Below, piece after piece: positions 5,693 to 26,503 of a stretch of 64,000 bases of DNA; position 1 is the first letter of the stretch; every line of letters begins with the position of its first letter. A program made the translations under genes and the position numbers. This stretch comes from a phage, in the NCBI GenBank assembly GCA_027468165.1, contig GCA_027468165.1_3951.1; one strand, written 5' to 3'. Below the pieces are notes generated by a model. It saw only the letters and a list, made by a program, of their open reading frames with translations, was not told the origin of the DNA and did not search any database.

Positions 5693-5745
5693 CTTGCTAC
5701 CTTCTAAGTTCCTACAAAGGGGCTATCAAGTAACCCCTCAAGTTG

Positions 5746-7774: not shown

Positions 7775-8060
7775 CGTTAAACTCTCTGACGAAGAAATAG
7801 TTGACTTTGTTATTCCCTACCATAAGGTCAAAGCAGGTGTTCTCAAAAGGTTTGTTGTAGGCATCATATGAGGTGTATGTATCAGCTACTTGTTTAGTGT
7901 TGAGCTTTTTACTTGATGGATTTAAGAGGCCACCATACAGTTTCTTGATAGCCTCTTCTACAACAGACCAGATAATTTCGTCAGTAATTTCTTCGTACAG
8001 GTCAAGTTCACGCTCTAGTGAGAAGTCACAAATTGGGAAAATAACCTGTACTTTACTCAT
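7767..8060 (-). CDS. Hypothetical protein (97 aa)
   Basis: ORF track. Confidence 0.5.
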   Translation of the reverse strand: MSKVQVIFPICDFSLERELDLYEEITDEIIWSVVEEAIKKLYGGLLNPSSKKLNTKQVADTYTSYDAYNKPFENTCFDLMVGNNKVNYFFVREFNDE

Positions 8061-8455
8061 TAACGAATGACCTGTGTTACCTGAATAGCTTCAGTTACTG
8101 ACAAATCACCAACCGTTTCTTCTTTGACGAAGGTGAAGGTCAGTTCAATAGGCTCTTGCTCTTCTTGCTCAACAGGAACACCATTAAGCTCATCAAAGAT
8201 TGATTGAGTTGTCCAGTCTTCTCCACCATCTGGGTAGTGGATTGCGTAAAGTGGAAACTCTAAATTATACCAAGCAAAAACAGGGCAACCATCTGCATCA
8301 TCTCGGCATCTGTGAAGGCATGTGTTTGTACCTTCAAAATGCAAATGGAGATTACCATTCTCCTCAAAGATGAGAGCATCTTGCAGGTCTAGTTCCTCAT
8401 TTTCGCTGTAACGGCTGACATCGACTTTAACGTGAATATGACTGTTATTATTCAT
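8060..8455 (-). CDS. Hypothetical acidic protein (131 aa)
   Basis: ORF track. Confidence 0.5.
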   Translation of the reverse strand: MNNNSHIHVKVDVSRYSENEELDLQDALIFEENGNLHLHFEGTNTCLHRCRDDADGCPVFAWYNLEFPLYAIHYPDGGEDWTTQSIFDELNGVPVEQEEQEPIELTFTFVKEETVGDLSVTEAIQVTQVIR

Positions 8456-8846
8456 AAAAACCTCTCTCTGCTTGTTTTATCTTTTCTTTGAGTGTTTCAC
8501 AACGCTCTATGTGATATTTTGCTTCACACTCGTGAGTTGCTAACTCTCTTTCAAGTAGAGTTTTATAATAACCTGACAATTGCTCTGTTGTCAATGGGTG
8601 TTCAGAAATAATATCTAATCCACTTTCTCCAAGAGGGTTGAACCGACCGTACTCATCTACTTTGTAAATCTCGAACCTGAAAAACCCATTCTTAGCACGG
8701 GTAATAGGTGATAGTTCAGCTAACTCTACAGTGAACTTTGTAGAAACCTCGTCACCCCTTACTACAATCTGACTGCCAATAATCCTCACCATTGAACCAT
8801 CACGAGTGTACTTAAAAGTCCCAAAGTCACTAGCCCAAAGCTTCAT
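8448..8846 (-). CDS. Hypothetical protein (132 aa)
   Basis: ORF track. Confidence 0.5.
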   Translation of the reverse strand: MKLWASDFGTFKYTRDGSMVRIIGSQIVVRGDEVSTKFTVELAELSPITRAKNGFFRFEIYKVDEYGRFNPLGESGLDIISEHPLTTEQLSGYYKTLLERELATHECEAKYHIERCETLKEKIKQAERGFYE

Positions 8847-8859
8847 AATTTTCTCCTTA

Positions 8860-8887
8860 GAAAATAAAAAAGGCTCCCGAAGGAGCC
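8860..8887 (-). terminator. Intrinsic terminator on minus strand (GGCTCC-TTCG-GGAGCC followed by T-run)
   Basis: Perfect 6-bp GC stem; plus-strand A8 tract is a T-run on the minus strand; lies just downstream of the lysozyme gene. Confidence 0.7.
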
Positions 8888-8897
8888 TATGAAGATA

Positions 8898-9362
8898 TTA
8901 CTTTGGGTATACACTGTCAAGATAAATGTCAGCTTCCATTCTGCGTCTGTTTTTCAGGCCGTTTGAAGTGACCTTCTTACCTTTGACCGTAACCTTGTTC
9001 CACCACTGCATAGCTTCTGCACAACCTACCTTGTTACCAGCGTTGTGGCGCTTGATAAATGTAGAATCCTGCATAGCTGTGATACCGATGTTGTATGTTT
9101 CACTTACAAGTGCATCGAACTCGTTCTGAGAGGTTGGAACCTTGATGGCTTTATTCACTGCTGCAACGAACTTCTCAACATCTGCAAGAAGATACTGTTC
9201 AGCTTGTTCAGCGGTAATTTTCATACCCATCTTAACAGGTTTTCCGTCAATACGGATTGTACCATACCCGATTGTTGGGATTCCGGCAGAGTCTTCGTAA
9301 GCCTCTAACTTCAGACCTTCAAAGAACTTAATAGCCTCCAAACCTTTTCTTGAGAGTTGCAT
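8898..9362 (-). CDS. T4-type lysozyme (GH24 endolysin)
   Basis: N-terminal LEAIKFFEGLKLEAYEDSAGIPTIGYGT matches the T4 lysozyme catalytic E/D/T region; SD GGGGAGG upstream. Confidence 0.8.
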   Translation of the reverse strand: MQLSRKGLEAIKFFEGLKLEAYEDSAGIPTIGYGTIRIDGKPVKMGMKITAEQAEQYLLADVEKFVAAVNKAIKVPTSQNEFDALVSETYNIGITAMQDSTFIKRHNAGNKVGCAEAMQWWNKVTVKGKKVTSNGLKNRRRMEADIYLDSVYPK

Positions 9363-10246
9363 TATGCCTCCCCTGCTGGGTTAACTGTAACTGTTGCCGC
9401 ATTAGATGTTACAGAGCCACCTGCACCAGTAACTACACAAGTGTAGCTTCCTGCATCAGCAGCAGTTGCACCTTCTTTGGTATAAGTTGCAGCAGTTGCA
9501 TTGAGGATATCTTCCTCACCTTTCTTCCACTGGTAACCTGTTGCACCAGTTGCCACAACATTCAGTGTTAAGGTCTCACCTTCAGTGATTTCTTGATTGG
9601 CTGGTTGTTGAGTGATAACTGGCAAAGCATTCACGGTTACTGTTGCTGCATCTGAGGTGACACTTGTCCCGCCCTCTCCAGATACAACGCAAGTGTATGA
9701 ACCAGCGTCAGAAGGTGCTACGGATTGTTTTGTGTAAGTTGCAGAAGTGGCACTAGGGATGTCCTCACCATCTTTCTTCCACTGATAACCAGTGGCATTA
9801 GATGCAACAACACTCAGAGTAAGCGTTCCACCTTCATTGACTGTTTGGTTTGTTGGTTGCTGAGTGATTGATGGTGGTGTGATGGCATCTTTCAACTTAG
9901 CATTCAGCATTGAGAACGGCTTAACTCTTGCCAACCATTCACAATACACTGTGTCAACGTCTTTACCATTAATGATTGCATACTGTAAATCCATGAAGAA
10001 ATCAGCAGTTCTCATCTGTGCACCAACACTGTAAAGGAGTTCATCACTAAAAGGAACTTTGTAGTCTGGTTTGTAGTCAAACTTCGCAACCTCTGCAATA
10101 TCAGCTTCAGGCCAATATGAGCTATAGGTGAGTGGTAAAATAGCTTCTTGATATGTTCTAAAATCATATCTCTTACCAGCCTTTACATTTGCAATGAAAC
10201 CCTTTACAAATTCTTTGAAGTCTGGGTAAGTCTTTGCTTTAATCAT
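9362..10246 (-). CDS. Protein with N-terminal domain of unknown function plus two tandem Ig-like domains
   Basis: Two ~85-aa repeats (ITQQPTNQTVNEGGTLTLSVVASNATGYQWKKDGEDI... and ITQQPANQEITEGETLTLNVVATGATGYQWKKGEEDI...); stop overlaps lysozyme start (TAATG). Confidence 0.6.
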   Translation of the reverse strand: MIKAKTYPDFKEFVKGFIANVKAGKRYDFRTYQEAILPLTYSSYWPEADIAEVAKFDYKPDYKVPFSDELLYSVGAQMRTADFFMDLQYAIINGKDVDTVYCEWLARVKPFSMLNAKLKDAITPPSITQQPTNQTVNEGGTLTLSVVASNATGYQWKKDGEDIPSATSATYTKQSVAPSDAGSYTCVVSGEGGTSVTSDAATVTVNALPVITQQPANQEITEGETLTLNVVATGATGYQWKKGEEDILNATAATYTKEGATAADAGSYTCVVTGAGGSVTSNAATVTVNPAGEA

Positions 10247-10614
10247 TTCTTTTTAGCCTCTAAACGTGCGTTTAATCTAAAATAGCCTTTATGTTGTGGA
10301 GACACATCACTAACAACAATACCTTCAACCTTATAACCCTTACCAATTACATACTGGATACCCATAAGAAACGTACCAAGCCCAACAATGTGGAACATTG
10401 GGTATAGTAACTTATCTGAATCTGGGAGCTTAATTTCTGGGTTATAGGTGGGTTGTTCGGCAGTTGGTGTAATATCCTCTTCAGGCCATTTACTCATTCT
10501 CCATGTTAAAGGTGATGCAATAACATCGTTAAGATTGTATCTTTCACCATTCTCCACGGAGTGGATATAGGATTGTAGGAAGCAATAAAAGTCTTTTGCA
10601 CTCTTAGCCTTCAT
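10243..10614 (-). CDS. Paralog of the N-terminal domain of the 9362-10246 product (123 aa)
   Basis: Shared pattern AK..DF...RY...WPE.DI...Y.P..K.P.SD.LLY...QY.I.GK between the two proteins. Confidence 0.55.
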   Translation of the reverse strand: MKAKSAKDFYCFLQSYIHSVENGERYNLNDVIASPLTWRMSKWPEEDITPTAEQPTYNPEIKLPDSDKLLYPMFHIVGLGTFLMGIQYVIGKGYKVEGIVVSDVSPQHKGYFRLNARLEAKKK

Positions 10615-10627
10615 TAAATATCCTTAT

Positions 10628-10658
10628 AAACAGATAAAGGGGCATCAGCCCCTGTTTA
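10628..10658 (-). terminator. Hairpin GGGGC-ATCA-GCCCC with T-rich flank on minus strand
   Basis: Read directly; intergenic between two minus-strand genes. Confidence 0.4.
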
Positions 10659-10661
10659 TAC

Positions 10662-11252
10662 TTAAGCTTTGGTCTTAAGTAGGTTCTTAAGTTTTTTGAG
10701 ATTCATGCTCTCGTCAAACTTAAAACCAAATCCATTGACATAATCAATGAACTCGGATTTCTTACTAAGTGATAGTGCGTAACTCATATCAAAGTTATTA
10801 CTTGTTTCTGCGTCTGGACTAGAGTTCACATCAAATGAAATTTCTGTAGGCTCTTGCTTGCTACTTCTCATATTATCAATCAATAGACAGGTGTAGTTCG
10901 CTGGATAGAAGTTAACACTCCCATCAACATACCCATACTTATTATTGTGAATAAGGCTTGAAAATACCTTAAGAAATGTTTCTGAGTCGTGGCATACAAG
11001 TTTGAATTGGCTGCATTCTCCAAGAGCCACTAAAGAGTAAGGACTTTCACTATCAATGTCATAGTTTGGGTTTGATGTTGTAACCGTCACACGCATCAGG
11101 TTATTGGCAATAGTCTTCTGCTTAAAAGAATTTGGAACATAGTGAAGACCTCTATCACACTGATTAACTAACTCTTTCAATAGGTCATTTGCATATGGTG
11201 AATTAATTGATACAGAGCCATCACTATTATAATTAAAACTTACTGTTAACAT
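10662..11252 (-). CDS. Hypothetical protein (196 aa)
   Basis: ORF track. Confidence 0.5.
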   Translation of the reverse strand: MLTVSFNYNSDGSVSINSPYANDLLKELVNQCDRGLHYVPNSFKQKTIANNLMRVTVTTSNPNYDIDSESPYSLVALGECSQFKLVCHDSETFLKVFSSLIHNNKYGYVDGSVNFYPANYTCLLIDNMRSSKQEPTEISFDVNSSPDAETSNNFDMSYALSLSKKSEFIDYVNGFGFKFDESMNLKKLKNLLKTKA

Positions 11253-11479
11253 TTTTCAGTTCTCCTGCGATTTATGATTTTGCTGCAATAGAGAAACGAA
11301 GTAAACTCACTGGAAGAAACCATTAAGTGTTGTTCACTAGATTGAGCCATTGCCCTGAAATACATTCCAGTCAAAGCATCGTAGTGACTATTCTTTCCAA
11401 TTGAGGTTATATAGCCATGACTCTTTGCAGTTTTATATAAATCTATAATATCTGCGATTTCTAATTGGGAACTACACAT
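11246..11479 (-). CDS. Hypothetical protein (77 aa)
   Basis: ORF track. Confidence 0.4.
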   Translation of the reverse strand: MCSSQLEIADIIDLYKTAKSHGYITSIGKNSHYDALTGMYFRAMAQSSEQHLMVSSSEFTSFLYCSKIINRRRTEKC

Positions 11480-11714
11480 AGATAATCCTCTTGTCTTCTG
11501 TAATTTTGAAAGAACAGGTACAGACCAATTTCAGAGGACGAATAGTAGAGTAACTCTACCCTTTTTGATTCCTTACAGTGATTGGTATTTTTACCTTTCT
11601 TCGGGTTGTTTGATTTTCTCATTAAGTCTCCTTTGTAGAACAAGGCAGACCTACAGCTTTAAGTAAGATGGTACAGTAATCCATACAACAAGTCAAGAAC
11701 TATTGCAAGTTAAA

Positions 11715-11765
11715 AAAGTTGTTGACAAAGGACTTGACAAGGTGTAGGCTTATAAATACTTAGAA
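11715..11765 (+). promoter_or_regulatory. Putative promoter region at the minus-to-plus strand switch (tandem TTGACA boxes, motif ACTTGACAAGGTG)
   Basis: AAAAAAGTTGTTGACAAAGGACTTGACAAGGTGTAGGCTTATAAAT; the -10 element is ambiguous. Confidence 0.35.
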
Positions 11766-11871
11766 GATTACTTAAAAGGTTCCTCTAAAAAGGCTATTTA
11801 AACAGATATCTTTCTGGATATCTATCTTTTATCTTAAAAGCCTTTTAAGAGGTCTTATAAGAGGCATACCA

Positions 11872-12243
11872 ATGAAAAACAGAACAAACAAAGGCCAGTT
11901 TAAAAAAGGCCAGTCTGGAAACCCATCTGGAAGACCAAAAGGCTCTCGTAACAAAAGCTCTCTCGTAAAAGCTCAACTGACCATTGATAATTCTGCTGAG
12001 TTTGCTGCAAAGCTGTTTGAGGCGATTGTTACAAGGGACGCTGCTAAGCTTGCAGAGTTCGGTTTGACGACTGACGATGTAAACCTGAAGTCAATGATGG
12101 AAGCTGGTAAAACTATCATGACCCACTCAGCAGGTGAGATGAAAGCAATTGCAGCAGACACTAAGAAGACTCCTGATAACGGTGGTCAACAACAGACAGA
12201 TAACAAACCAACGTTCTCTGCTGTAGCAACTCTCAAAAAATAA
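11872..12243 (+). CDS. Small basic protein with N-terminal GNPSGRPKG motif (123 aa)
   Basis: ORF track; motif recurs in many uncharacterised phage proteins, function not assigned here. Confidence 0.5.
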   Translation: MKNRTNKGQFKKGQSGNPSGRPKGSRNKSSLVKAQLTIDNSAEFAAKLFEAIVTRDAAKLAEFGLTTDDVNLKSMMEAGKTIMTHSAGEMKAIAADTKKTPDNGGQQQTDNKPTFSAVATLKK

Positions 12244-12250
12244 TTTTAAA

Positions 12251-12285
12251 AGGTGTTGACAGACTCTACAAAGTTGCTCTAAAGT
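12251..12285 (+). promoter_or_regulatory. Putative promoter: A-tract, TTGACA 12256-12261, 18 bp, TAAAGT 12280-12285, with inverted repeat GACAGACT/AGTCTGTC bridging -35 and -10
   Basis: Read directly. Confidence 0.5.
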
Positions 12286-12324
12286 CTGTCACATCAAACA
12301 ACAAATGAGAGAAGAGAGTAAAAT

Positions 12325-13740
12325 ATGAGCGAGTTATTTAAACATGCGCACCTTCATACAGGTCGAACTGAAAATGGTGCTGTAAACCATACTTCATCAA
12401 TGTCTGCTCTGGTAGACTTCTACAAAGCCGCTGGCTCAAGCCGTAGCAATGTAGAAATCTTACCAGACCTGTTCTACAAAGCTTTGCGTGAGGATGTTGA
12501 TGTTGCAGTTCGTATTTTACTGCATATGCGAGATGTACGAGAAGGTATGGGCGAGCGTAAAGCTTTCCGAACTGTTTTACTTCAAGCAATTGAAGATAAG
12601 GTTTTAGAGCCTACACAGGTTCTTCGCATCATGGATAAGATTGCAGAACTTGGTCGTTTTGATGACTTCAAAATCTTCGTAGGTACTCGTTTTGAGACAG
12701 ATTCCTTCAAACATTTAGAAGCAGCATTACTAGACCCTGCAACAGCAGGTTTAGCAGCTAAGTGGTTGCCACGAGTAAAACCACGCCACAAACAGTTTGT
12801 AAAACGTTTCTGTAAGTTTGCAAACTTGAGTGAGAAGGAGTATCGCACACTGTTATCTGCACTGTCTGATACGGTTGAGCAAAAAATCTCTGCTAATGAT
12901 TTTGGTAAGATTGACTACAGCAAGATTCCTTCACTCGCTGCTGCACGTTACCAAAAGCTCTTTAACCGTAAAGATGGGGAACGTTACAAAGCTTATATCG
13001 AGTCACTCTCAAAAGGTGAGGCTAAGATTAACGCTGGTGCTGTTTACCCATACGATGTGATTAAATCTATTAAGTATGGTAATGCAGATGTTGCTAATGA
13101 GCAGTGGAAAGCACTTCCAAACTGGATGGCAGAAGGTGAAAACATCTTGTGTATGACTGATGTCTCAAGCTCAATGTCTTGGGTGAATCTTGGTTCAATC
13201 ACTGCCCTTGATATTGGTGTATCCCTTGCCTTGTATGTAGCAGAACGCAATACAGGTTGCTTTAAAGATGAGTTAATGGTCTATTCAACAAACCCTCATT
13301 TCATTGAACTGAGTGGTGATTTACGAAACCGTCATCGTCAGGTGATGCGACATGTTGAATATGGTTCAACTAACTTACAAGCAGCTTTTGACCGCATTCT
13401 TGAGGTAGGTAAGCGAAACAAATTGACTCAGAAAGATATGCCAAGTAAGCTTATCATCTTCTCTGATATGGAGTTTAATCAGGTTGATGGTGCAAATGGT
13501 CGTACAAACTTTGAAGCAATTCAGAGTAAGTACAAAAAAGCTGGATATGAGATGCCACAACTAGTATTCTGGTACTTAGCAAACCGTAATGGTACTTGCG
13601 AAGTGTCTGTTAAGGATAATGGTGTAGCAATGGTATCAGGGTTCTCTCCAGCCACTTTAAAAGCTCTGCTTGGTGGTGAGAAGTTTGACCCAATCAGCGT
13701 AATGCTCAAAGCAGTAATGATTGACCGTTACATCTGGTAA
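12325..13740 (+). CDS. von Willebrand factor A (vWA) domain protein with MIDAS motif; N-terminal ~270 aa unassigned (possibly TROVE-like)
   Basis: DxSxS motif (CMTDVSSSMS) followed by a vWA-like beta strand (KLIIFSDMEF); strong SD; sits immediately upstream of the tRNA array. Confidence 0.65.
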   Translation: MSELFKHAHLHTGRTENGAVNHTSSMSALVDFYKAAGSSRSNVEILPDLFYKALREDVDVAVRILLHMRDVREGMGERKAFRTVLLQAIEDKVLEPTQVLRIMDKIAELGRFDDFKIFVGTRFETDSFKHLEAALLDPATAGLAAKWLPRVKPRHKQFVKRFCKFANLSEKEYRTLLSALSDTVEQKISANDFGKIDYSKIPSLAAARYQKLFNRKDGERYKAYIESLSKGEAKINAGAVYPYDVIKSIKYGNADVANEQWKALPNWMAEGENILCMTDVSSSMSWVNLGSITALDIGVSLALYVAERNTGCFKDELMVYSTNPHFIELSGDLRNRHRQVMRHVEYGSTNLQAAFDRILEVGKRNKLTQKDMPSKLIIFSDMEFNQVDGANGRTNFEAIQSKYKKAGYEMPQLVFWYLANRNGTCEVSVKDNGVAMVSGFSPATLKALLGGEKFDPISVMLKAVMIDRYIW

Positions 13741-13904: not shown

Positions 13905-13981
13905 CTCTGTTTAGCTCAGCTTGGTAGAGCGTTCCGTTTGGGGCGGTAAGGCCGGAGGTTCAAGTCCTCCAACAGAGACCA
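13905..13981 (+). tRNA. tRNA-Pro (anticodon UGG)
   Basis: Manual fold: acceptor CTCTGTT/AACAGAG, D-arm GCTCAGCTTGGTAGAGC, anticodon loop TTTGGGG, T-arm GGAGG-TTCAAGT-CCTCC, CCA encoded. Confidence 0.7.
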
Positions 13982-13988
13982 AATTAAT

Positions 13989-14066
13989 GTTCCAGTAGAC
14001 AAAATGGTATAGTCACCACTCTTTCAAAGTGGATATTTGAGGGTTCAAATCCCTTCTGGAACGCCA
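13989..14066 (+). tRNA. tRNA-Glu (anticodon UUC)
   Basis: Acceptor GTTCCAG/CTGGAAC, anticodon stem-loop CCACT-CTTTCAA-AGTGG, T-loop TTCAAAT, CCA encoded. Confidence 0.75.
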
Positions 14067-14073
14067 GTTTTGA

Positions 14074-14146
14074 CAGAAGACCAATTGCAGCAAACTTAAT
14101 CTTATTCATCTGACACGAAATCGGACAAAGAAGAGATTTGGTCTGG
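14074..14146 (+). repeat. tRNA-spacer element E1 (5' CAGAAGACC ... 3' GGTCTGG)
   Basis: Conserved termini able to pair (AGACC/GGTCT); starts 8 nt after tRNA-Glu and ends 12 nt before the next tRNA. Confidence 0.5.
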
Positions 14147-14157
14147 TCATTAAGAAT

Positions 14158-14234
14158 TGCGGGTATAGAGAAAGGGCGTCTCACATGTCTCATTAGCATG
14201 GTATCGGCAGGTTCGACTCCTGCACCCGCCTCCA
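14158..14234 (+). tRNA. tRNA-Met (anticodon CAU), initiator-like
   Basis: Anticodon stem-loop CATGT-CTCATTA-GCATG, T-arm GCAGG-TTCGACT-CCTGC, acceptor with unpaired 1:72 position; D-arm atypical. Confidence 0.55.
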
Positions 14235-14240
14235 ATTTTG

Positions 14241-14300
14241 CAGAAGACCGTATGCAGCAATAAACTACTTTTTGCGGATAAAAGAAAAAACACGGTCTGG
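14241..14300 (+). repeat. tRNA-spacer element E2 (CAGAAGACC ... GGTCTGG)
   Basis: Same terminal motifs and same placement relative to flanking tRNAs as E1. Confidence 0.5.
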
Positions 14301-14311
14301 CAATGTATTAA

Positions 14312-14385
14312 GGTTAGGAAGCACATAAGGTATGTGCGGTCGCCTGTTAAGCGAATGGCACAGGGTTCGAATCCCTGACTAACCG
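14312..14385 (+). tRNA. tRNA-Asn (anticodon GUU)
   Basis: Acceptor GGTTAGG/ACTAACC, D-stem GCAC/GTGC, anticodon loop CTGTTAA, T-arm CAGGG-TTCGAAT-CCCTG. Confidence 0.65.
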
Positions 14386-14396
14386 CAAATTTAAAT

Positions 14397-14484
14397 GTGT
14401 CGTTATCCCGTAGATGGTAGCGGTGGGGACTGTAAATCCCTTGTCATTGAGACTCGGTAGGTTCGACTCCTACACGGCACACCA
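14397..14484 (+). tRNA. tRNA-Tyr (anticodon GUA), long variable arm
   Basis: Acceptor GTGTCGT/ACGGCAC, anticodon loop CTGTAAA, ~14-nt variable arm, T-arm GTAGG-TTCGACT-CCTAC, CCA encoded. Confidence 0.7.
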
Positions 14485-14545
14485 ATTTTGAGAGGGCTAT
14501 TTAGCCCCTCCCTTAAAGGGTTCTTACGAGTATCCTTTAAAGGAG

Positions 14546-14619
14546 CAGAAGACCAAATACAGCAAGTTACTTAAAATTTCAAGCTAATTTAATTTTGAAA
14601 AATTTAAAACTTGGTCTGG
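14546..14619 (+). repeat. tRNA-spacer element E3 (CAGAAGACC ... GGTCTGG)
   Basis: Same terminal motifs. Confidence 0.5.
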
Positions 14620-14632
14620 CTCAACAAATTTA

Positions 14633-14763
14633 CAGAAGACCGTTTACAGCAAAACTTAAACAATCTATTTCTCGGTAAAGAAAAGGCGAAGGTTCGATTC
14701 CTTCACTCGGCAGATGTCGAGTTGGTGTAATGGTAGCACTTAAGATGATAAACAACGGTCTGG
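14633..14763 (+). repeat. tRNA-spacer element E4 (CAGAAGACC ... GGTCTGG) enclosing a tRNA-like fragment
   Basis: Same terminal motifs; interior contains T-arm and acceptor-like hairpins. Confidence 0.5.
14688..14739 (+). other. tRNA-like fragment in permuted order (T-arm + 3' acceptor strand, then complementary 5' acceptor strand + D-arm); no anticodon arm
   Basis: GAAGG-TTCGATT-CCTTC then ACTCGGC, 4-nt gap, then GTCGAGT + TGGTGTAATGGTAGCAC; the two acceptor strands are complementary. Confidence 0.3.
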
Positions 14764-14866
14764 TAATTATCTTTGCAGTAGCTTATGTGGCTAATTATGT
14801 CGTCCCATGAGTGCCGATGAATTTCCTTAGCATGATTCTAGATTAGCTTAATAGGAAATGACTCTA

Positions 14867-14887
14867 CAGACCCTTTAGCAAGGTCTG
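14867..14887 (+). repeat. Minimal spacer element E5 (CAGACC-CTTTAGCAA-GGTCTG)
   Basis: Shares the AGACC/GGTCT closing stem and GCAA motif with E1-E4. Confidence 0.4.
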
Positions 14888-14914
14888 CGTAGGTTACTGC
14901 AAAGATAATTTAAT

Positions 14915-14990
14915 GGAAGTGTAGCAGAATGGTGATGCGGCAGACTTTTAATCTGACAGGCGACGGGTTCGAATCCCTCCACTTCTACCA
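14915..14990 (+). tRNA. tRNA-Lys (anticodon UUU)
   Basis: Acceptor GGAAGTG/CACTTCT, anticodon loop CTTTTAA, T-loop TTCGAAT, CCA encoded; T-stem weak. Confidence 0.6.
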
Positions 14991-14994
14991 ATAT

Positions 14995-15071
14995 GGTTCA
15001 GTCGCAGATAAGGTAATGCAAGGGTCTCATAAGCCCTATGAATGTGGGTTCGATTCCCATCTGAACCTCCA
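14995..15071 (+). tRNA. tRNA with anticodon CAU (elongator Met or Ile-lysidine)
   Basis: Acceptor GGTTCAG/CTGAACC, anticodon stem-loop AGGGT-CTCATAA-GCCCT, T-loop TTCGATT, CCA encoded. Confidence 0.65.
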
Positions 15072-15072
15072 A

Positions 15073-15148
15073 GCTGGTATAGTTAAGAAGGTTATAACAC
15101 TCCCCTGATAAGGGAACATCGGTGGTTCGATTCCACCTACCAGTACCA
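15073..15148 (+). tRNA. tRNA-Ile (anticodon GAU)
   Basis: Acceptor GCTGGTA/TACCAGT, anticodon loop CTGATAA, T-arm GGTGG-TTCGATT-CCACC, CCA encoded. Confidence 0.7.
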
Positions 15149-15157
15149 ATTTCAATA

Positions 15158-15192
15158 AAGTTGTTGACATTGATATGTGACCACTTTATAGT
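15158..15192 (+). promoter_or_regulatory. Putative internal promoter: A-tract, TTGACA 15164-15169, 17 bp, TATAGT 15187-15192
   Basis: Near-consensus sigma70 elements. Confidence 0.5.
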
Positions 15193-15484
15193 AACTAAAA
15201 TACTTCATAATATGTATAATTCAAACACCAATACATGAGCGTTAGACGTAACACAATGTGGGGAAATTTGTTGTACATATTCTGAATAGTTTTCGTTGCG
15301 TAGCGTCTATTTTGCAAATTTAAAATAAATGCAAACGACAATGTTTTTCTGGCAGTAGCTTGATAGGCTAAACACCAGTGAGGTCTTCCAATCCCTCATC
15401 AAAGAATTTGGCGTACTCGCCCACGGTATGATTAATAAGGTGGGCATCTTTAAGGGTTTTTTAAGAGAGTCTTTAAAGATTAAT

Positions 15485-15561
15485 GCACCCTTAGTTCAAC
15501 TGGACAGAACAAATGACTTCTAATCATTAGGTTACAGGTTCGAATCCTGTAGGGTGTGCCA
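15485..15561 (+). tRNA. tRNA-Arg (anticodon UCU)
   Basis: Acceptor GCACCCT/AGGGTGT, D-stem GTTC/GAAC, anticodon stem-loop AATGA-CTTCTAA-TCATT, T-arm ACAGG-TTCGAAT-CCTGT, CCA encoded. Confidence 0.75.
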
Positions 15562-15576
15562 GTTTAAGAGGTATAT

Positions 15577-15918
15577 ATGAAGAACGGCTCTATAGGAGAA
15601 ATTGCAACTCAACTTGAGTTTATGAAGATGGGATATGAAATCTACTCACCAGCAACTGACAATGCTAGGTATGATTTTATAGCTCACAAAGACGGTAAAC
15701 TTTATAAAGTTGAAGTTAAATCCACCTCAAGGAAAGTTAGAGATGTATGGAAAGTGCAACTAAAGAGAGTTCATTCAAATAGAAGTTCAAACAGAATAGC
15801 TAACTTTGATAACACGTTAGTTGATTTCTTATCAGTTTATATTGAACCTCTTGAAAAGGTTATAATCCTTAAAGCTAAAGACGTTACTTCAAAAACTGAG
15901 TTAAGCTTAAGGGTTTAG
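15577..15918 (+). CDS. Small PD-(D/E)xK nuclease-like protein (113 aa) embedded in the tRNA array
   Basis: Motif D(FIA)...KVEVKS resembling the PD...(D/E)xK catalytic core; strong SD. Confidence 0.5.
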   Translation: MKNGSIGEIATQLEFMKMGYEIYSPATDNARYDFIAHKDGKLYKVEVKSTSRKVRDVWKVQLKRVHSNRSSNRIANFDNTLVDFLSVYIEPLEKVIILKAKDVTSKTELSLRV

Positions 15919-16027
15919 ATTATCTTCTGTAAGGAGGTGGTCTGTATCTCATGTTTCCAGAACATGTAAATAATCTGAGAAGGGGCTTTACAGTGTTGCG
16001 AAAATACGGTAAGCTTCGAATTATAGT

Positions 16028-16110
16028 ATGGGACGATGTTAAGACTCTAAGGCATGAGCAACGGCTTCCAACACCGTTTCAAAGGGGTTCAACTCCTCCG
16101 TCCCATGCCA
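16028..16110 (+). tRNA. Atypical tRNA-like gene, possibly tRNA-Trp (anticodon CCA) with enlarged D-region
   Basis: Perfect acceptor ATGGGAC/GTCCCAT, anticodon stem-loop ACGGC-TTCCAAC-ACCGT, T-loop TTCAACT, CCA encoded; D-region ~7 nt too long. Confidence 0.4.
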
Positions 16111-16122
16111 AGTCTTATTAGG

Positions 16123-16210
16123 GGTAGGTAGCGGCTAATGGTAGCCAAACTGTCTTGAAAACAGTTGCCACTGTAGAGATACGGTGAGGGTTCGACTCCT
16201 TTACTTACCG
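16123..16210 (+). tRNA. tRNA-Ser (anticodon UGA), long variable arm
   Basis: Anticodon stem-loop ACTGT-CTTGAAA-ACAGT, ~20-nt variable arm, T-loop TTCGACT. Confidence 0.6.
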
Positions 16211-16465
16211 CCTAATAAGATTTAAAGCCAAGCTTCATTCGGATGTTGCTTTGGTATCCCTCGTGTATTGTCGTACACAAGTAAAGCACCTAGTAGGTGT
16301 CACGGAGAAGAGATAATATCAAGCTCTCCAAAGGTTCTAGTCACCGGATTAAACAAGACTATGCAAAGGCCTATTTAGGTCTTTTTAGAGGGCTTCTAAG
16401 GTTATTACAGCTTGTTGTGGAACCTTGTTGCTTAGGTTCTTAGAAGTTCTCTAAAAAGATTTAAT

Positions 16466-16543
16466 GGGAGATTGACGGTAATTGGTAAACCTATCTCGCT
16501 TAGAACGAGATGTTTGAGGGTTCGAATCCCTTGTCTCCTACCA
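16466..16543 (+). tRNA. tRNA with anticodon UAG (Leu), short variable region
   Basis: Acceptor GGGAGAT/GTCTCCT, anticodon stem-loop TCTCG-CTTAGAA-CGAGA, 5-nt variable region, T-arm GAGGG-TTCGAAT-CCCTT, A73, CCA encoded. Confidence 0.6.
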
Positions 16544-16550
16544 AATTAAT

Positions 16551-16626
16551 GCAGGTGTAGCAAAATGGTTATGCGGCTGACTCTTAATCAGTAAGACGAT
16601 GGGTTCAATTCCCTCCACCTGTACCA
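16551..16626 (+). tRNA. tRNA-Lys (anticodon CUU)
   Basis: Acceptor GCAGGTG/CACCTGT, anticodon stem-loop GCTGA-CTCTTAA-TCAGT, T-loop TTCAATT, CCA encoded. Confidence 0.65.
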
Positions 16627-16632
16627 GACATT

Positions 16633-16708
16633 GGGGATGTAGTTTACATGGTTAAAACATAAGTTTTGCAAACTTAAGTACAGGGTTCAATTCCCTGCTT
16701 CTCCACCA
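16633..16708 (+). tRNA. tRNA-Ala (anticodon UGC)
   Basis: G3:U70 wobble pair in acceptor stem, D-stem GTTT/AAAC, anticodon stem-loop TAAGT-TTTGCAA-ACTTA, T-arm CAGGG-TTCAATT-CCCTG, CCA encoded. Confidence 0.75.
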
Positions 16709-16714
16709 ATTAGT

Positions 16715-16789
16715 GCATCCATAGTTTAAACGGGAAAATTACAGTCTTCCAAACTGAGGTTGAGGGTTCGATTCCCTCTGGATGCTCCA
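16715..16789 (+). tRNA. tRNA-Gly (anticodon UCC)
   Basis: Acceptor GCATCCA/TGGATGC, anticodon loop CTTCCAA, T-arm GAGGG-TTCGATT-CCCTC, CCA encoded. Confidence 0.7.
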
Positions 16790-16796
16790 AATTAAT

Positions 16797-16873
16797 GCTG
16801 CTTTCGTATAATTGGCTATTACACATCCCTTGTAAGGATGGAAATGCAGGTTCGAGTCCTGTGAGCAGCACCA
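16797..16873 (+). tRNA. tRNA-Thr (anticodon UGU)
   Basis: Acceptor GCTGCTT/GAGCAGC, anticodon stem-loop CATCC-CTTGTAA-GGATG, T-arm GCAGG-TTCGAGT-CCTGT, CCA encoded. Confidence 0.75.
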
Positions 16874-16968
16874 ATTCAGAGGTCAAGTGAAAGACCGCTG
16901 GTGTCAACTGAAGACCGTAACAAATTCCACGGAGTTGAGTTAGCGGCACAACTTCAGACCTCTTTCAT

Positions 16969-17043
16969 ACTCGCTTAGTTTATATGGTAAAACACCACCC
17001 TTACAAGATGAAGAAAAAGGTTCAAGTCCTTTAGTGAGTACCA
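16969..17043 (+). tRNA. tRNA-Val (anticodon UAC)
   Basis: Acceptor ACTCGCT/AGTGAGT, D-stem GTTT/AAAC, anticodon loop CTTACAA, T-arm AAAGG-TTCAAGT-CCTTT, CCA encoded; anticodon stem weak. Confidence 0.6.
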
Positions 17044-17044
17044 T

Positions 17045-17122
17045 GTTCCAGTATCCCAATTGGTAGAGGATGCAAGCTCAAACCTTGTACTAGTGACGGT
17101 TCGAATCCGTCTTGGAACACCA
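17045..17122 (+). tRNA. tRNA with anticodon CAA (Leu), short variable region
   Basis: Acceptor GTTCCAG/TTGGAAC, anticodon stem-loop GCAAG-CTCAAAC-CTTGT, 6-nt variable region, T-arm GACGG-TTCGAAT-CCGTC, A73, CCA encoded. Confidence 0.6.
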
Positions 17123-17236
17123 ACTTTAGGAGAGCACTGTGAGTGATAAGTCAATAGCAAAAAAGTTTAGAGCGTCATACCTAAACAGACGTAAAAACAG
17201 AGATTGTGAAAAACTGTATGGTGTTCTTGTAGGTAA

Positions 17237-17312
17237 GCAGGATTAGTTCAAATGGATAGAGCAACAGTCTACGAAGCTGTTAATAGGGGTTCGAATCCCT
17301 TATCCTGCGCCA
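17237..17312 (+). tRNA. tRNA-Arg (anticodon ACG)
   Basis: Perfect acceptor GCAGGAT/ATCCTGC, anticodon stem-loop ACAGT-CTACGAA-GCTGT, T-loop TTCGAAT, CCA encoded. Confidence 0.75.
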
Positions 17313-17331
17313 ATTTAAAGAGGCTATTTAG

Positions 17332-17889
17332 ATGAGATATTTGAAGTATGCTTCATGGATTTTCTTAGCTTTGTTAGAGCCATTTGCAGCAATCTTAGCA
17401 GTTATCTTAGCACCTTTCGTAGTTCCATTTTACAGTGAGAAGAAAGGACACTTACCTTTCGGCTTCAGATGGATGGAAACATACGACAACCCAATTGATG
17501 GTGATAAAGGTCATGTCGAACGGTGGGCTAAGATTAGAAAGATTGGTAAGCTCGGTGTCTACATGCAGAGAGTTGGATGGCTCTGGAGAAACAAAGCTTA
17601 TAACTTCTCTTACCATGTGTTAGGAAGAGATGTAAAAGATGTTACTAAGTGGAAAGGTAATATCAATGTAAGTTCTAACCCTGAAGATAATCAGACAGGT
17701 TATCTCCTAATGTGGAACAGTAATGCTTGGGGGTTATTCGCTTTTATCCCATCAATTAAAGTCTTTGGTAAACAATTCTACTGGAGAATTTATGTTGGGT
17801 GGAAACTTAAAAGTGTTGTCCCAGAAGAAAGAGCATTCTCAAGGGAAAGAGTTATGTTGGCATTCTTTATTCATCCACTGAGAAAGTAA
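17332..17889 (+). CDS. Membrane protein with hydrophobic N-terminus (185 aa) embedded in the tRNA array
   Basis: ORF track; N-terminal segment WIFLALLEPFAAILAVILAPFVVPF; ATG 20 nt after tRNA-Arg. Confidence 0.5.
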   Translation: MRYLKYASWIFLALLEPFAAILAVILAPFVVPFYSEKKGHLPFGFRWMETYDNPIDGDKGHVERWAKIRKIGKLGVYMQRVGWLWRNKAYNFSYHVLGRDVKDVTKWKGNINVSSNPEDNQTGYLLMWNSNAWGLFAFIPSIKVFGKQFYWRIYVGWKLKSVVPEERAFSRERVMLAFFIHPLRK

Positions 17890-17897
17890 AGATTTAA

Positions 17898-17973
17898 AGG
17901 GGATTAGTTTACAAGGTTAAAACCTCGGTCTTTGAAATCGAAGAAGTTGGTTCAATTCCAACATCCCCCGCCA
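17898..17973 (+). tRNA. tRNA-Gln (anticodon UUG)
   Basis: D-stem GTTT/AAAC, anticodon stem-loop TCGGT-CTTTGAA-ATCGA, T-arm GTTGG-TTCAATT-CCAAC, CCA encoded; position 1:72 unpaired. Confidence 0.65.
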
Positions 17974-17975
17974 AT

Positions 17976-18054
17976 GCTCCATTACTCCAATTGGCAGAGA
18001 GGCCAGACTTAAAATCTGTGTTATGTATCGGTTCGAATCCGATATGGAGTACCA
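17976..18054 (+). tRNA. tRNA with anticodon UAA (Leu), short variable region
   Basis: Acceptor GCTCCAT/ATGGAGT, anticodon loop CTTAAAA, 7-nt variable region, T-arm ATCGG-TTCGAAT-CCGAT, A73, CCA encoded. Confidence 0.6.
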
Positions 18055-18059
18055 AATTT

Positions 18060-18135
18060 AGCGGTATAGCATAACTGGCAATGCAACAGTCTCTGAAGCT
18101 GTCTTATTAAGGTTCAAATCCTTATGCCGCTGCCA
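18060..18135 (+). tRNA. tRNA-Gln (anticodon CUG)
   Basis: Acceptor AGCGGTA/TGCCGCT, D-stem GCAT/ATGC, anticodon stem-loop ACAGT-CTCTGAA-GCTGT, T-arm TAAGG-TTCAAAT-CCTTA, CCA encoded. Confidence 0.7.
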
Positions 18136-18166
18136 CTTCTAAGGGTTCTTACGAGAGTCCTTAAAT

Positions 18167-18242
18167 GTGGCCTTATCATAAATGGTAATGACCCATGCTG
18201 TGAACATGGTCTATACGGGTTCAAATCCCGTAGGTCACCCCA
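18167..18242 (+). tRNA. tRNA-His (anticodon GUG)
   Basis: Acceptor GTGGCCT/AGGTCAC, D-stem TCAT/ATGA, anticodon stem-loop CCATG-CTGTGAA-CATGG, T-arm ACGGG-TTCAAAT-CCCGT, C73, CCA encoded. Confidence 0.75.
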
Positions 18243-18247
18243 ATTTA

Positions 18248-18324
18248 TAGTCCAAGTAGCTTATATGGTTAAAGCGCGTGTCTGAAAAACATGAGAAGAG
18301 GGTTCAAATCCCACTGGACTACCA
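18248..18324 (+). tRNA. tRNA-Phe (anticodon GAA); ends uncertain
   Basis: D-stem GCTT/AAGC, anticodon stem-loop CGTGT-CTGAAAA-ACATG, T-loop TTCAAAT; acceptor pairing admits two registers. Confidence 0.55.
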
Positions 18325-18340
18325 ATTTCAAAGGTGCTTA

Positions 18341-19075
18341 ATGAAAGAGATGACAGAACAAGGTAAGGAGATTTTTAATCTCTTAAAAACTGGTAGAGGG
18401 TTTTCTAATCCCCTTATTACTGGTGCAGCAGTTCTCGGTGGAACCGTAGCTGCCTCTACATCACTTGTAAGCTCTATTAGCTCTGTAACAGACCCTACAA
18501 TAAAGGATAAACTTGTTGCGGCTGGACTTACAACAGTTCTGCTTAACAGCTTTACAACGAGTCTGACAAGCACTACATCAACCACTAAGACACTGACAGA
18601 TTACGGTCAAAAGTCCATTGATGAGTTTTCATCACGTATGCAGGTAGCAAAAGGATATTCCAATGTTATGGGTGCAGCAGGAGAACAAGTCGGTTGTACA
18701 CCATTTAGTGGTATTATGGGTGTTGCTACAGAGTACGGTCAAAAAGCTATTGACACAATTAACAGTACACTAGATGGTGTTAATGATGTATTAAGTGACT
18801 TACAAGATGCTATTGATAAAGGTCTTGATACTGTTTCTGATTTAGCTAATCAGGCTGTTAGTAAGATTAATGAAGGTATTTCGAAGATTACAGCTTATGC
18901 AAATGAAGTTGTGCAGATGATTGAAGAAGAAGCTGCCCTTATTGCAGAGTACCTTAAAACGAATATCAATGGGTTCTTAGCAGGTATCTTACCAGACTGG
19001 TTTGATGATGCTTGTAAAACTGGTGTGATTGACACTATTGCAACACCAGAAATGAAGAGCGCATTACAGAAATAA
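18341..19075 (+). CDS. Hypothetical Ser/Thr-rich protein (245 aa from the ATG at 18341)
   Basis: ORF-track frame trimmed to the first ATG downstream of tRNA-Phe (MKEMTEQ...). Confidence 0.5.
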   Translation: MKEMTEQGKEIFNLLKTGRGFSNPLITGAAVLGGTVAASTSLVSSISSVTDPTIKDKLVAAGLTTVLLNSFTTSLTSTTSTTKTLTDYGQKSIDEFSSRMQVAKGYSNVMGAAGEQVGCTPFSGIMGVATEYGQKAIDTINSTLDGVNDVLSDLQDAIDKGLDTVSDLANQAVSKINEGISKITAYANEVVQMIEEEAALIAEYLKTNINGFLAGILPDWFDDACKTGVIDTIATPEMKSALQK

Positions 19076-19076
19076 T

Positions 19077-19169
19077 GGAAGATTAACCCTAAAAGGTAAG
19101 GGAGCAGTTTGCTAAACTGCCAGTAGCTGAGAAATCGGTGTACCAGTTCAAGTCTGGTATCTTCCTCCA
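19077..19169 (+). tRNA. tRNA-Ser (anticodon GCU), long variable arm
   Basis: Acceptor GGAAGAT/ATCTTCC, anticodon stem-loop GCAGT-TTGCTAA-ACTGC, ~21-nt variable arm, T-arm ACCAG-TTCAAGT-CTGGT, CCA encoded. Confidence 0.6.
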
Positions 19170-19173
19170 ATTT

Positions 19174-19249
19174 GAATCCGTGACAGAAATGGCTATGTGC
19201 CTGTCTGCAAAACAGGTTTATAAGGGTTCGAGTCCCTTCGGATTCTCCA
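19174..19249 (+). tRNA. tRNA-Cys (anticodon GCA)
   Basis: Perfect acceptor GAATCCG/CGGATTC, anticodon stem-loop CCTGT-CTGCAAA-ACAGG, T-arm AAGGG-TTCGAGT-CCCTT, U73, CCA encoded. Confidence 0.7.
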
Positions 19250-25390: not shown

Positions 25391-26503
25391 ATGTTGACTA
25401 ATTCTGAAAAAAGCAGATTTTTCCTTGCTGACCTGACTGGTGAAGTCCAGTCTATCCCAAATACTTATGGGTATATTTCCAACTTAGGTCTGTTCCGTTC
25501 AGCACCAATTACCCAAACTACTTTCCTGATGGACTTAACTGATTGGGATGTTAGCTTGCTTGATGCGGTAGACCGTGATAGCCGTAAAGCAGAGACTAGC
25601 GCACCTGAGCGTGTTCGTCAAATCAGCTTCCCAATGATGTACTTCAAAGAAGTTGAAAGCATCACTCCTGATGAAATTCAGGGTGTACGTCAGCCAGGCA
25701 CTGCAAACGAACTGACTACTGAAGCTGTAGTACGTGCTAAGAAGCTGATGAAGATTCGTACCAAGTTCGATATTACTCGTGAGTTCCTGTTTATGCAAGC
25801 TCTGAAGGGTAAAGTTGTTGATGCTCGTGGTACTCTGTATGCTGACCTGTACAAGCAGTTCGACGTTGAGAAGAAGACTATTCACTTCGACCTTGACAAC
25901 CCTAATGCTGACATCGACGCTTCTATTGAAGAACTGCGTATGCACATGGAAGACGAAGCTAAGACTGGCACTGTAATCAACGGTGAAGAAATTCACGTAG
26001 TTGTTGACCGTGTATTCTTCAGCAAACTGACTAAGCATCCTAAGATTCGTGACGCTTATCTTGCACAGCAGACTCCACTGGCTTGGCAACAGATTACTGG
26101 CTCTCTGAGAACTGGTGGTACTGACGGCGTTCAGGCTCATATGAACACCTTCTACTACGGTGGTGTTAAGTTTGTCCAGTACAATGGTAAGTTCAAAGAC
26201 AAGCGTGGTAAGGTTCACACTCTGGTGAGCATTGATGGTGTTACTCAGGACGGAACTGTAGGTGTAGGTCACGCTTTCCCTAACGTTTCTATGCTGGGTG
26301 AAGCAAACAACATCTTCGAAGTGGCATATGGCCCATGTCCTAAGATGGGTTATGCAAATACACTTGGTCAGGAACTGTACGTATTCGAATACGAAAAAGA
26401 CCGTGACGAAGGTATTGACTTTGAAGCTCACTCTTACATGCTGCCATACTGTACTCGTCCTCAGTTGCTGGTAGACGTTCGTTCTGACGCTAAAGGCGAA
26501 TAA
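25391..26503 (+). CDS. Major capsid protein (putative)
   Basis: 370-aa ORF with strong SD after protease/scaffold; call is positional. Confidence 0.6.
   Translation: MLTNSEKSRFFLADLTGEVQSIPNTYGYISNLGLFRSAPITQTTFLMDLTDWDVSLLDAVDRDSRKAETSAPERVRQISFPMMYFKEVESITPDEIQGVRQPGTANELTTEAVVRAKKLMKIRTKFDITREFLFMQALKGKVVDARGTLYADLYKQFDVEKKTIHFDLDNPNADIDASIEELRMHMEDEAKTGTVINGEEIHVVVDRVFFSKLTKHPKIRDAYLAQQTPLAWQQITGSLRTGGTDGVQAHMNTFYYGGVKFVQYNGKFKDKRGKVHTLVSIDGVTQDGTVGVGHAFPNVSMLGEANNIFEVAYGPCPKMGYANTLGQELYVFEYEKDRDEGIDFEAHSYMLPYCTRPQLLVDVRSDAKGE

Follow-up and report, generated by a model that had tools for sequence, protein, structure and literature searches.

Hex-Dec, the hexamer decoration protein of Escherichia phage JohannRWettstein (Bas63), was modeled on the capsid by cryo-electron microscopy (cryo-EM). 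Its immunoglobulin (Ig)-like repeats, which number from one to four within the genus, were unresolved in the map, and its gene is separated from the structural module by more than 10 kb (PMC12609058). In phage Sf14, the counterpart gp20 was found in particles by mass spectrometry; its first 118 residues constitute the capsid-binding domain (CapBD), and R79 and R107 form salt bridges with D221 in three of the six capsid protein subunits (PMC11821841). The related protein of phage Felix O1, gp36 (31.6 kDa, 44% coverage), was detected in CsCl-purified virions, and the location of its gene away from the morphogenesis genes was remarked on at the time (PMC3185647). Here we describe the corresponding locus in a stretch of phage DNA of 64,000 nucleotides (GenBank assembly GCA_027468165.1, contig GCA_027468165.1_3951.1), referred to below as the window. 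The locus is a translationally coupled three-gene cassette of a Felix O1-type myophage, encoding a paralog that consists of the CapBD only, Hex-Dec, and an endolysin. The Ig-bearing gene is already known, and most of the finding is thereby explained; what remains new is the small paralog upstream of it.

The Ig-bearing gene and its capsid-binding domain

The window is a Felixounavirus genome. A megablast search with positions 8800 to 11300 returned 250 phage records, nearly all of Felixounavirus or other Ounavirinae, the top match being Escherichia phage vB_EcoM_D4 (96.5% identity). The Felixounavirus matches include one record under the name "Staphylococcus phage" (given as SA1 in the annotation notes of VpaE1), a grouping that points to a wrongly assigned host or to contamination of the record. 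The Felix O1 equivalents of the small gene, the large gene, and the endolysin gene are ORF37, ORF36 ("tail protein"), and ORF35, respectively, with lengths identical to those of the window genes.

In a sequence search of the PDB, residues 1 to 290 of the 294-amino-acid (aa) protein aligned to residues 1 to 290 of 9NCF chain S of Bas63 (E value, 1e-244), and the protein also matched 9C2D chain S, which is Sf14 gp20 (E value, 6e-166). Its CapBD is ~97% identical to that of Bas63 Hex-Dec and ~88% identical to that of Sf14 gp20. By alignment, the protein has both anchoring arginines, R79 and R107, and their partner D221 is found in the major capsid protein of the window. Judged by this near-identity to solved structures of other phages, the 294-aa protein is almost certainly Hex-Dec, the orthologue of Felix O1 ORF36, and would work as published. 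As a monomer, it would plug the center of each of the 60 pentamer-proximal hexamers of a T=9 capsid with its CapBD, anchored to major capsid protein subunits through contacts of R79 and R107 with D221, and would hold its two Ig-like domains outward, as T4 Hoc does. The gene lies outside the structural module, adjoining the endolysin gene, ~15 kb from the major capsid protein gene and on the opposite strand. That the decoration gene is >10 kb away from the structural module had been pointed out before, in the papers on Bas63 and Felix O1.

Orthologues of Hex-Dec are widely labeled "tail protein" or "major tail protein" and once "s-layer homolog protein." A Kolesnikvirus-type homologue is once labeled "kappa-carrageenase," and the 123-aa paralog is a "Tail protein" in UniRef. 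Such public labels conflict with the capsid location seen by cryo-EM. We rejected the tail label for Hex-Dec, because the matches to tail-family PHROGs (phrog_158, 853, 3575, and 9239) cover the Ig region only and the structures put the protein on the capsid. The label apparently stems from Ig-domain similarity and is a legacy of the Felix O1 annotation. The widespread "tail protein" annotation is wrong for both the large gene and its small neighbor, the large gene being that of a capsid decoration protein.

Pfam Ig_3, Ig_2, and I-set each match the large protein twice, at residues ~124 to 205 and ~209 to 288, as expected from the two Ig-like domains of the preliminary description, which had been made from the sequence alone. 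The two repeats of the window are 71% identical to each other, in protein and in DNA. Their number varies among relatives: the window protein has two, that of Bas63 four (in a 460-aa protein), that of Sf14 three, and many others have one (210-aa forms). Phage LTH02, with a CapBD 99% identical to that of the window, encodes a 377-aa protein, consistent with three repeats. Repeat number was thus observed to shift over very short evolutionary distances (window positions 9365 to 9880 compared with LTH02 and Bas63), and since the repeats are ~71% identical, such changes fit unequal recombination.

A profile search with the CapBD among 1.8 billion representative proteins recovered 12 clusters only, all of them short proteins (118 to 377 aa) with the match at the N terminus. 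The nine clusters that were retrieved all contain the Ounavirinae CapBD motifs, together with varied display modules. Metagenomic relatives (P0101 to P0105) carry a Big-like domain, one I-set domain, or, in P0105, a Lys/Ser-rich low-complexity tail alone. As a capsid anchor, the CapBD comes out as narrow and modular; it is paired with I-set Ig domains (one to four copies), a Big_2, Big-like, or low-complexity module, or no module at all. An anchor of this kind is useful for phage display and for the engineering of Felix O1-type therapeutic phages.

A paralog without Ig-like repeats

The gene upstream of Hex-Dec encodes a protein of 123 aa and is preceded by a good Shine-Dalgarno sequence. BLASTP aligned this protein with the 294-aa protein over 121 residues, with 36% identity and 55% positives (E value, 3e-16). 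Without composition correction, the score was 60.5 bits, compared with 10.6 ± 5.9 bits (maximum, 25.4) for 200 shuffled sequences. Both open reading frames (ORFs) of the preliminary description are present on the minus strand, and the duplication that it proposed for their shared N-terminal ~120 aa is borne out by this similarity, which is far above that of the shuffles. Orthologues of the small paralog are Felix O1 ORF37, Sf14 gp021, bas63_0125, and VpaE1 gp40, and the protein family is phrog_4463 (unknown function).

The sequence of the small protein ends after the CapBD, without an Ig-like display domain, and a Pfam scan of it found no domain. Its only structural matches by sequence are to the CapBD (residues 3 to 119) of 9NCF_S and 9C2D_S (E values, 1e-12 and 1e-10, respectively). 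An AlphaFold2 model built from a diverse alignment, which included CapBD sequences, reached a predicted local distance difference test (pLDDT) score of 77 and a predicted template modeling (pTM) score of 0.77. This model superposes over its full length on 9C2D_S and 9NCF_S (TM score, 0.76 to 0.79), and no other PDB fold was matched (next hit, E value of 0.4). It superseded a first model from a shallow 22-sequence alignment, which had a pLDDT of 54 and gave a merely suggestive fold search.

In an alignment of both paralog clades, the Hex-Dec clade has the motif GAQMRTADF, which contains R79; the corresponding motif of the small clade, FHIVGLGTF, is invariant and carries Gly in place of R79. Position 107 in the small clade is mostly Gln or His (Gln in the window protein). 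Seven polar residues (D8, R25, T37, S41, E45, D47, and N115) are invariant in both clades, a hint at the sequence level that some interaction surface may be retained in the small protein. The 123-aa protein arose by an old duplication of the capsid-binding domain, keeping the fold and losing the Ig display module and the R79 anchor.

The order of small gene, Hex-Dec, and endolysin was found in ~230 Ounavirinae genomes. The tandem pair, always followed by the lysin, occurs in at least four lineages, namely, Felixounavirus, Mooglevirus (Sf14, Mordin, and ESh22), Suspvirus (PC79-13), and an uncultured 87-kb phage whose small protein is 45% identical to that of the window. Scans of IMG/VR and JGI metagenomes yielded no further loci for the divergent small paralog P0099; an exact look-up succeeded. 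A neighbor-joining tree separates the small proteins and the Hex-Dec CapBDs into two monophyletic clades, and paralogs of one genome are only 30 to 37% identical; the duplication is therefore old and has not been homogenized by gene conversion. Pairwise ratios of nonsynonymous to synonymous substitutions (dN/dS, Nei-Gojobori) among ten phages were 0.13 for the small gene (dS, ~1), 0.045 for the CapBD, 0.13 to 0.17 for the first Ig-like domain, and 0.09 for the lysin. From the first two of these ratios it follows that the small gene encodes a selected protein under looser constraint than the CapBD.

An intact small gene (a frame of 122 to 124 aa) is present in ~233 of the 253 Ounavirinae records with a CapBD match. 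Nineteen phages (including Tf [OR980947.1], REP5-12, SP116, mio, and Z31) share one relic of the gene, in which the start codon is destroyed and ~180 to 200 nucleotides (nt) are deleted internally. These Felixounaviruses come from Escherichia coli, Salmonella, and Shigella and retain the hairpin, the ribosome-binding site of Hex-Dec, an intact and highly conserved Hex-Dec, and an intact lysin. The small gene is therefore dispensable and no obligate partner of Hex-Dec. In Salmonella phage SP3_SHan-2021 (MW296865.1), one chimeric gene of 292 aa replaces both genes; small-paralog residues 1 to 48 are joined to Hex-Dec from residue 51 onward at the shared WPExDI motif, with ~10 to 17 nt of microhomology. 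This chimera could be a genuine recombination product or, less likely, an assembly artifact.

The small paralog is not mentioned in either cryo-EM paper: the word "paralog" is absent from the Bas63 text, and gp21 is undiscussed in the Sf14 paper (PMC12609058, PMC11821841). An Ig-less, CapBD-only paralog is thus apparently undescribed. Its orthologue is missing from the Felix O1 virion list of 17 proteins, which reaches 9.7 kDa and includes a portal candidate present in 12 copies (PMC3185647). The VpaE1 virion list of 22 proteins adds only gp54, gp58, and gp68 to the Felix O1 set, so that gp40 is absent from it by inference. The paralog is also unmodeled in the capsids of Bas63 and Sf14, though both phages encode it, and both studies report "no density" on the 20 facet-center hexamers (PMC12609058, PMC11821841). 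The Sf14 supplement lists gp21 neither way.

Gene layout and timing of expression

The features of the locus are collected in Table 1. The Hex-Dec stop codon overlaps the endolysin start in TAATG at 9360 to 9364, and the small-gene stop overlaps the Hex-Dec start in ATGA at 10243 to 10246. The former overlap had been taken in the preliminary description to imply coexpression with the lysozyme; the overlap itself is confirmed, and translational coupling is supported. A programmed frameshift joining the small and large ORFs was considered and dropped, since the ATGA overlap reflects ordinary coupling and both ORFs have Shine-Dalgarno sequences of their own.

Table 1. Positions of the cassette, its flanking RNA elements, and the major capsid protein gene in the window
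Feature	Position	Strand	Remarks
Small paralog ORF	10243..10614	-	123 aa, CapBD-like, without Ig domain
Small paralog, G78 codon; Q107 codon	10381-10383; 10294-10296	-	Positions of the Hex-Dec anchoring arginines
Large ORF, predicted Hex-Dec	9362..10246	-	294 aa, Hoc-like hexamer decoration protein; phrog_3995 over full length
CapBD of Hex-Dec, residues 1-122	9881..10246	-	Domain in common with small paralog
Hex-Dec, R79 codon; R107 codon	10010-10012; 9926-9928	-	From alignment
Ig-like domain 1	9626..9880	-	Residues 123-207, I-set/Ig_3
Ig-like domain 2	9365..9625	-	Residues 208-294, I-set/Ig_3
Endolysin, T4-type phage lysozyme	8898..9362	-	154 aa; PF00959, E value 7e-41
Hairpin GGGGC-UGAU-GCCCC with interrupted U tract	10638..10653	-	-15 kcal/mol; 24 nt upstream of small gene
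Canonical intrinsic terminator GGCUCC-UUCG-GGAGCC, then U6AU4	8871..8888	-	Directly after endolysin
Major capsid protein gene	25391..26503	+	PF03864, E value 1e-77; D221 at 26051-26053

The sole direct evidence on timing comes from end-point reverse transcription-PCR (RT-PCR) of Felix O1, in which ORFs 36 and 37 reached their maximum at 60 min, as did structural genes 51, 53, 63, 64, 72, 73, 76, and 77, and ORF35 (lysin) and ORF38 peaked at 25 min (PMC3185647). These data contradict the "early block" in which the preliminary description had found an Ig-bearing protein unexpected. The domain shared by the two genes turned out to be that of a known virion component, the large protein being a virion-surface protein in two cryo-EM capsids and in Felix O1 virions, and ORFs 36 and 37 are expressed late. 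The premise of an unexpected early Ig protein is thus refuted by published structures, proteomics, and timing data, and with the Ig-bearing gene already understood the puzzle dissolves. The earlier interpretation is only partly supported; the observation itself is confirmed.

The hairpin upstream of the small gene (10653 to 10638), the weaker of the two, corresponds to Felix O1 terminator t38, and the terminator after the lysin (8888 to 8871) corresponds to t35; both are also annotated in phage Mordin. An Rfam scan of positions 8000 to 12500 found no RNA family. A recurring intergenic unit was observed, consisting of a GC-rich hairpin, a U-rich stretch, a ribosome-binding site (AAGGAG or AAGAGG), and ATG. 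It is found on the minus strand at 10638 to 10653, 8871 to 8888, and ~5700 to 5730 and on the plus strand just upstream of 30317 and 40213, so that it occurs in the minus-strand block as well as inside the late tail operon. These units may mark partial terminators or sites of mRNA stability or processing, not operon ends. When the upstream regions of late genes were compared by eye, no common late-promoter motif was seen, only the recurring hairpin-plus-ribosome-binding-site units.

Elsewhere in the window, 25 tRNA genes are clustered on the plus strand at 13905 to 19249. Directly upstream of the cluster are genes for a 471-aa DUF2828/DUF7788 protein (12325 to 13740; "RNA-binding protein" in relatives) and for a DUF5681 protein (11872 to 12243).

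Candidate roles of the small protein and comparison with known systems

In our reading, the small protein is made late, is under selection yet dispensable, has the CapBD fold, and is probably not retained as a stable component of the mature virion. What it would do can be proposed only tentatively: it may recognize the centers of capsid hexamers weakly or transiently, as an Ig-less placeholder or as a modulator of where and when Hex-Dec binds. Candidate targets would be the hexamers of the procapsid or the 20 facet-center hexamers without Hex-Dec. It would then modulate the binding of Hex-Dec and be no decoration itself.

Alternatively, the small paralog could be a third decoration that has escaped notice, an Ig-less plug for the 20 facet-center hexamers on the true 3-fold axes, with the two paralogs subfunctionalized for two hexamer conformations. 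In the facet-center hexamers, D221 faces away from the sites that R79 and R107 would occupy. The CapBD fold, late production together with Hex-Dec, and purifying selection all fit such a plug, which we nevertheless consider unlikely, because the protein was not found in the Felix O1 and VpaE1 virion proteomes, where the 12-copy portal and a 9.7-kDa protein were, and because it is dispensable in the 19-phage clade. A broader version, to which we give similarly little credence, makes the paralog a functional ligand for a hexamer state that Hex-Dec cannot bind, whether that of the facet-center hexamers or that of the unexpanded procapsid, and thus either a third decoration or a maturation factor. 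Such a protein would have been missed if it were substoichiometric, labile in purification, or blurred by icosahedral averaging. If this were true, two paralogous plugs would read out two conformations of one capsid protein. A role as partner or chaperone of Hex-Dec, forming a heterodimer with its CapBD for solubility or blocking premature binding until the heads expand, has about the same low probability. The small gene stands immediately upstream of Hex-Dec, with ATGA coupling, in every lineage that has it; the CapBD consists of two similar lobes, so that lobe-lobe pairing is conceivable (PMC12609058); and in the natural chimera the body of Hex-Dec carries residues 1 to 48 of the small protein. 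However, start/stop overlaps are the rule across the gene block and carry little information, Kolesnikvirus has a CapBD-Big_2 decoration gene without any small paralog, and the highly conserved Hex-Dec of the 19 Felixounaviruses without the small gene argues against an obligate chaperone.

Two further explanations are highly improbable. A decaying duplicate without its own function would account for a gene that 19 genomes have lost or degraded, that one has merged into Hex-Dec, and that evolves about three times faster than the CapBD, but not for a dN/dS of 0.13 with a dS of ~1, a frame intact in ~233 of 253 genomes and in a lineage with only 45% identity, clade-specific invariant motifs, a good Shine-Dalgarno sequence, and transcription in Felix O1. 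The idea of an early lysis-associated block, in which the Ig protein has a nonvirion role tied to the endolysin or to lysis timing and the paralog pair are lysis accessories, draws on the translational coupling to the endolysin, on the position of the CapBD-display gene next to the lysin even in Kolesnikvirus, and on the location of the cassette, which is surrounded by small genes without assigned function and lies on the opposite strand from the structural module. It conflicts with two cryo-EM structures that place the large protein on the capsid, with the detection of this protein among the virion proteins of Felix O1, and with the late peak of ORFs 36 and 37. The endolysin is a late function itself, and neither paralog shows a membrane segment, a signal sequence, or holin or spanin similarity in Pfam and PHROG scans.

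Several points also weigh against our own reading of the small protein as a late, transient hexamer ligand. The role rests on inference, and the loss of R79 and the differing conserved patch (PMFHIVGLG instead of SVGAQMRTA) would fit an entirely different partner just as well. The R107 equivalent is Arg in two small-paralog sequences, P0045 and P0099. For its absence from the virion, the evidence is negative and comes from proteomics of an older or targeted kind and from maps averaged icosahedrally, which would blur a monomer on a true 3-fold axis. As to timing, the Felix O1 RT-PCR is coarse and noisy, with the major capsid protein gene ORF58 scored "early," and ORF35 peaks at 25 min despite its coupling to ORF36. 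A sigma-70 scan upstream of the cassette gave no convincing promoter, the total of matches equaling the shuffled expectation; since no promoter was found and similar hairpins occur inside late operons, no separate late promoter or transcription unit is claimed. That Hex-Dec sits on only 60 of 80 hexamers, while a second copy of the binding domain, without the anchor, is maintained in these phages, poses a modest but well-posed question, for which the natural deletion and chimera variants of the small gene are ready-made test material.

Among described decoration proteins, T4 Hoc is likewise a monomeric, nonessential protein at hexamer centers that shows a string of Ig-like domains. We know of no Ig-less paralog of T4 Hoc. 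Hoc is found in several orientations on the hexamer, whereas Hex-Dec occupies 60 of 80 hexamers in one orientation. The capsid-binding domain of Hoc is C-terminal, smaller, and topologically distinct (PMC12609058), and the CapBD of the window protein showed no detectable sequence resemblance to Hoc. Matches to PHROG "Hoc-like head decoration" families are restricted to the Ig part of the large protein (residues 119 to 292). Because of this restriction, the confinement of the CapBD profile to 12 clusters, and the distinct fold topologies, Hex-Dec is best regarded as working like Hoc without being a member of the Hoc family. T5 pb10, a decoration protein (PDB 5LXK and 8ZVI), has an Ig domain that matches the first Ig-like domain of the window protein (E values, 5e-12 and 7e-12, respectively), but the match is confined to the Ig domain, and the capsid-binding domains are without detectable similarity.

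In the protein of Kolesnikvirus (the Erwinia phage phiEa21-4/M7 group; e.g., Fifi318 gp116, PQ051114.1), the CapBD is homologous (37% identity), and the gene again lies directly upstream of that for the lysin. The Kolesnikvirus protein differs in its display module, which is Big_2 instead of I-set Ig, and these genomes are without a small CapBD-only paralog. The closest systems are Hex-Dec of Bas63 (9NCF chain S) and gp20 of Sf14 (9C2D and 9C3A chain S). With these, the large protein of the window shares the succession of a CapBD and I-set Ig repeats, the arginines R79 and R107, the position next to the endolysin, and the small gene upstream; it differs in having two Ig repeats, compared with four in Bas63 and three in Sf14. 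The small paralog of the window resembles the Hex-Dec proteins of both phages in its CapBD fold and differs from them in having no Ig module, Gly in place of R79, and Gln in place of R107.

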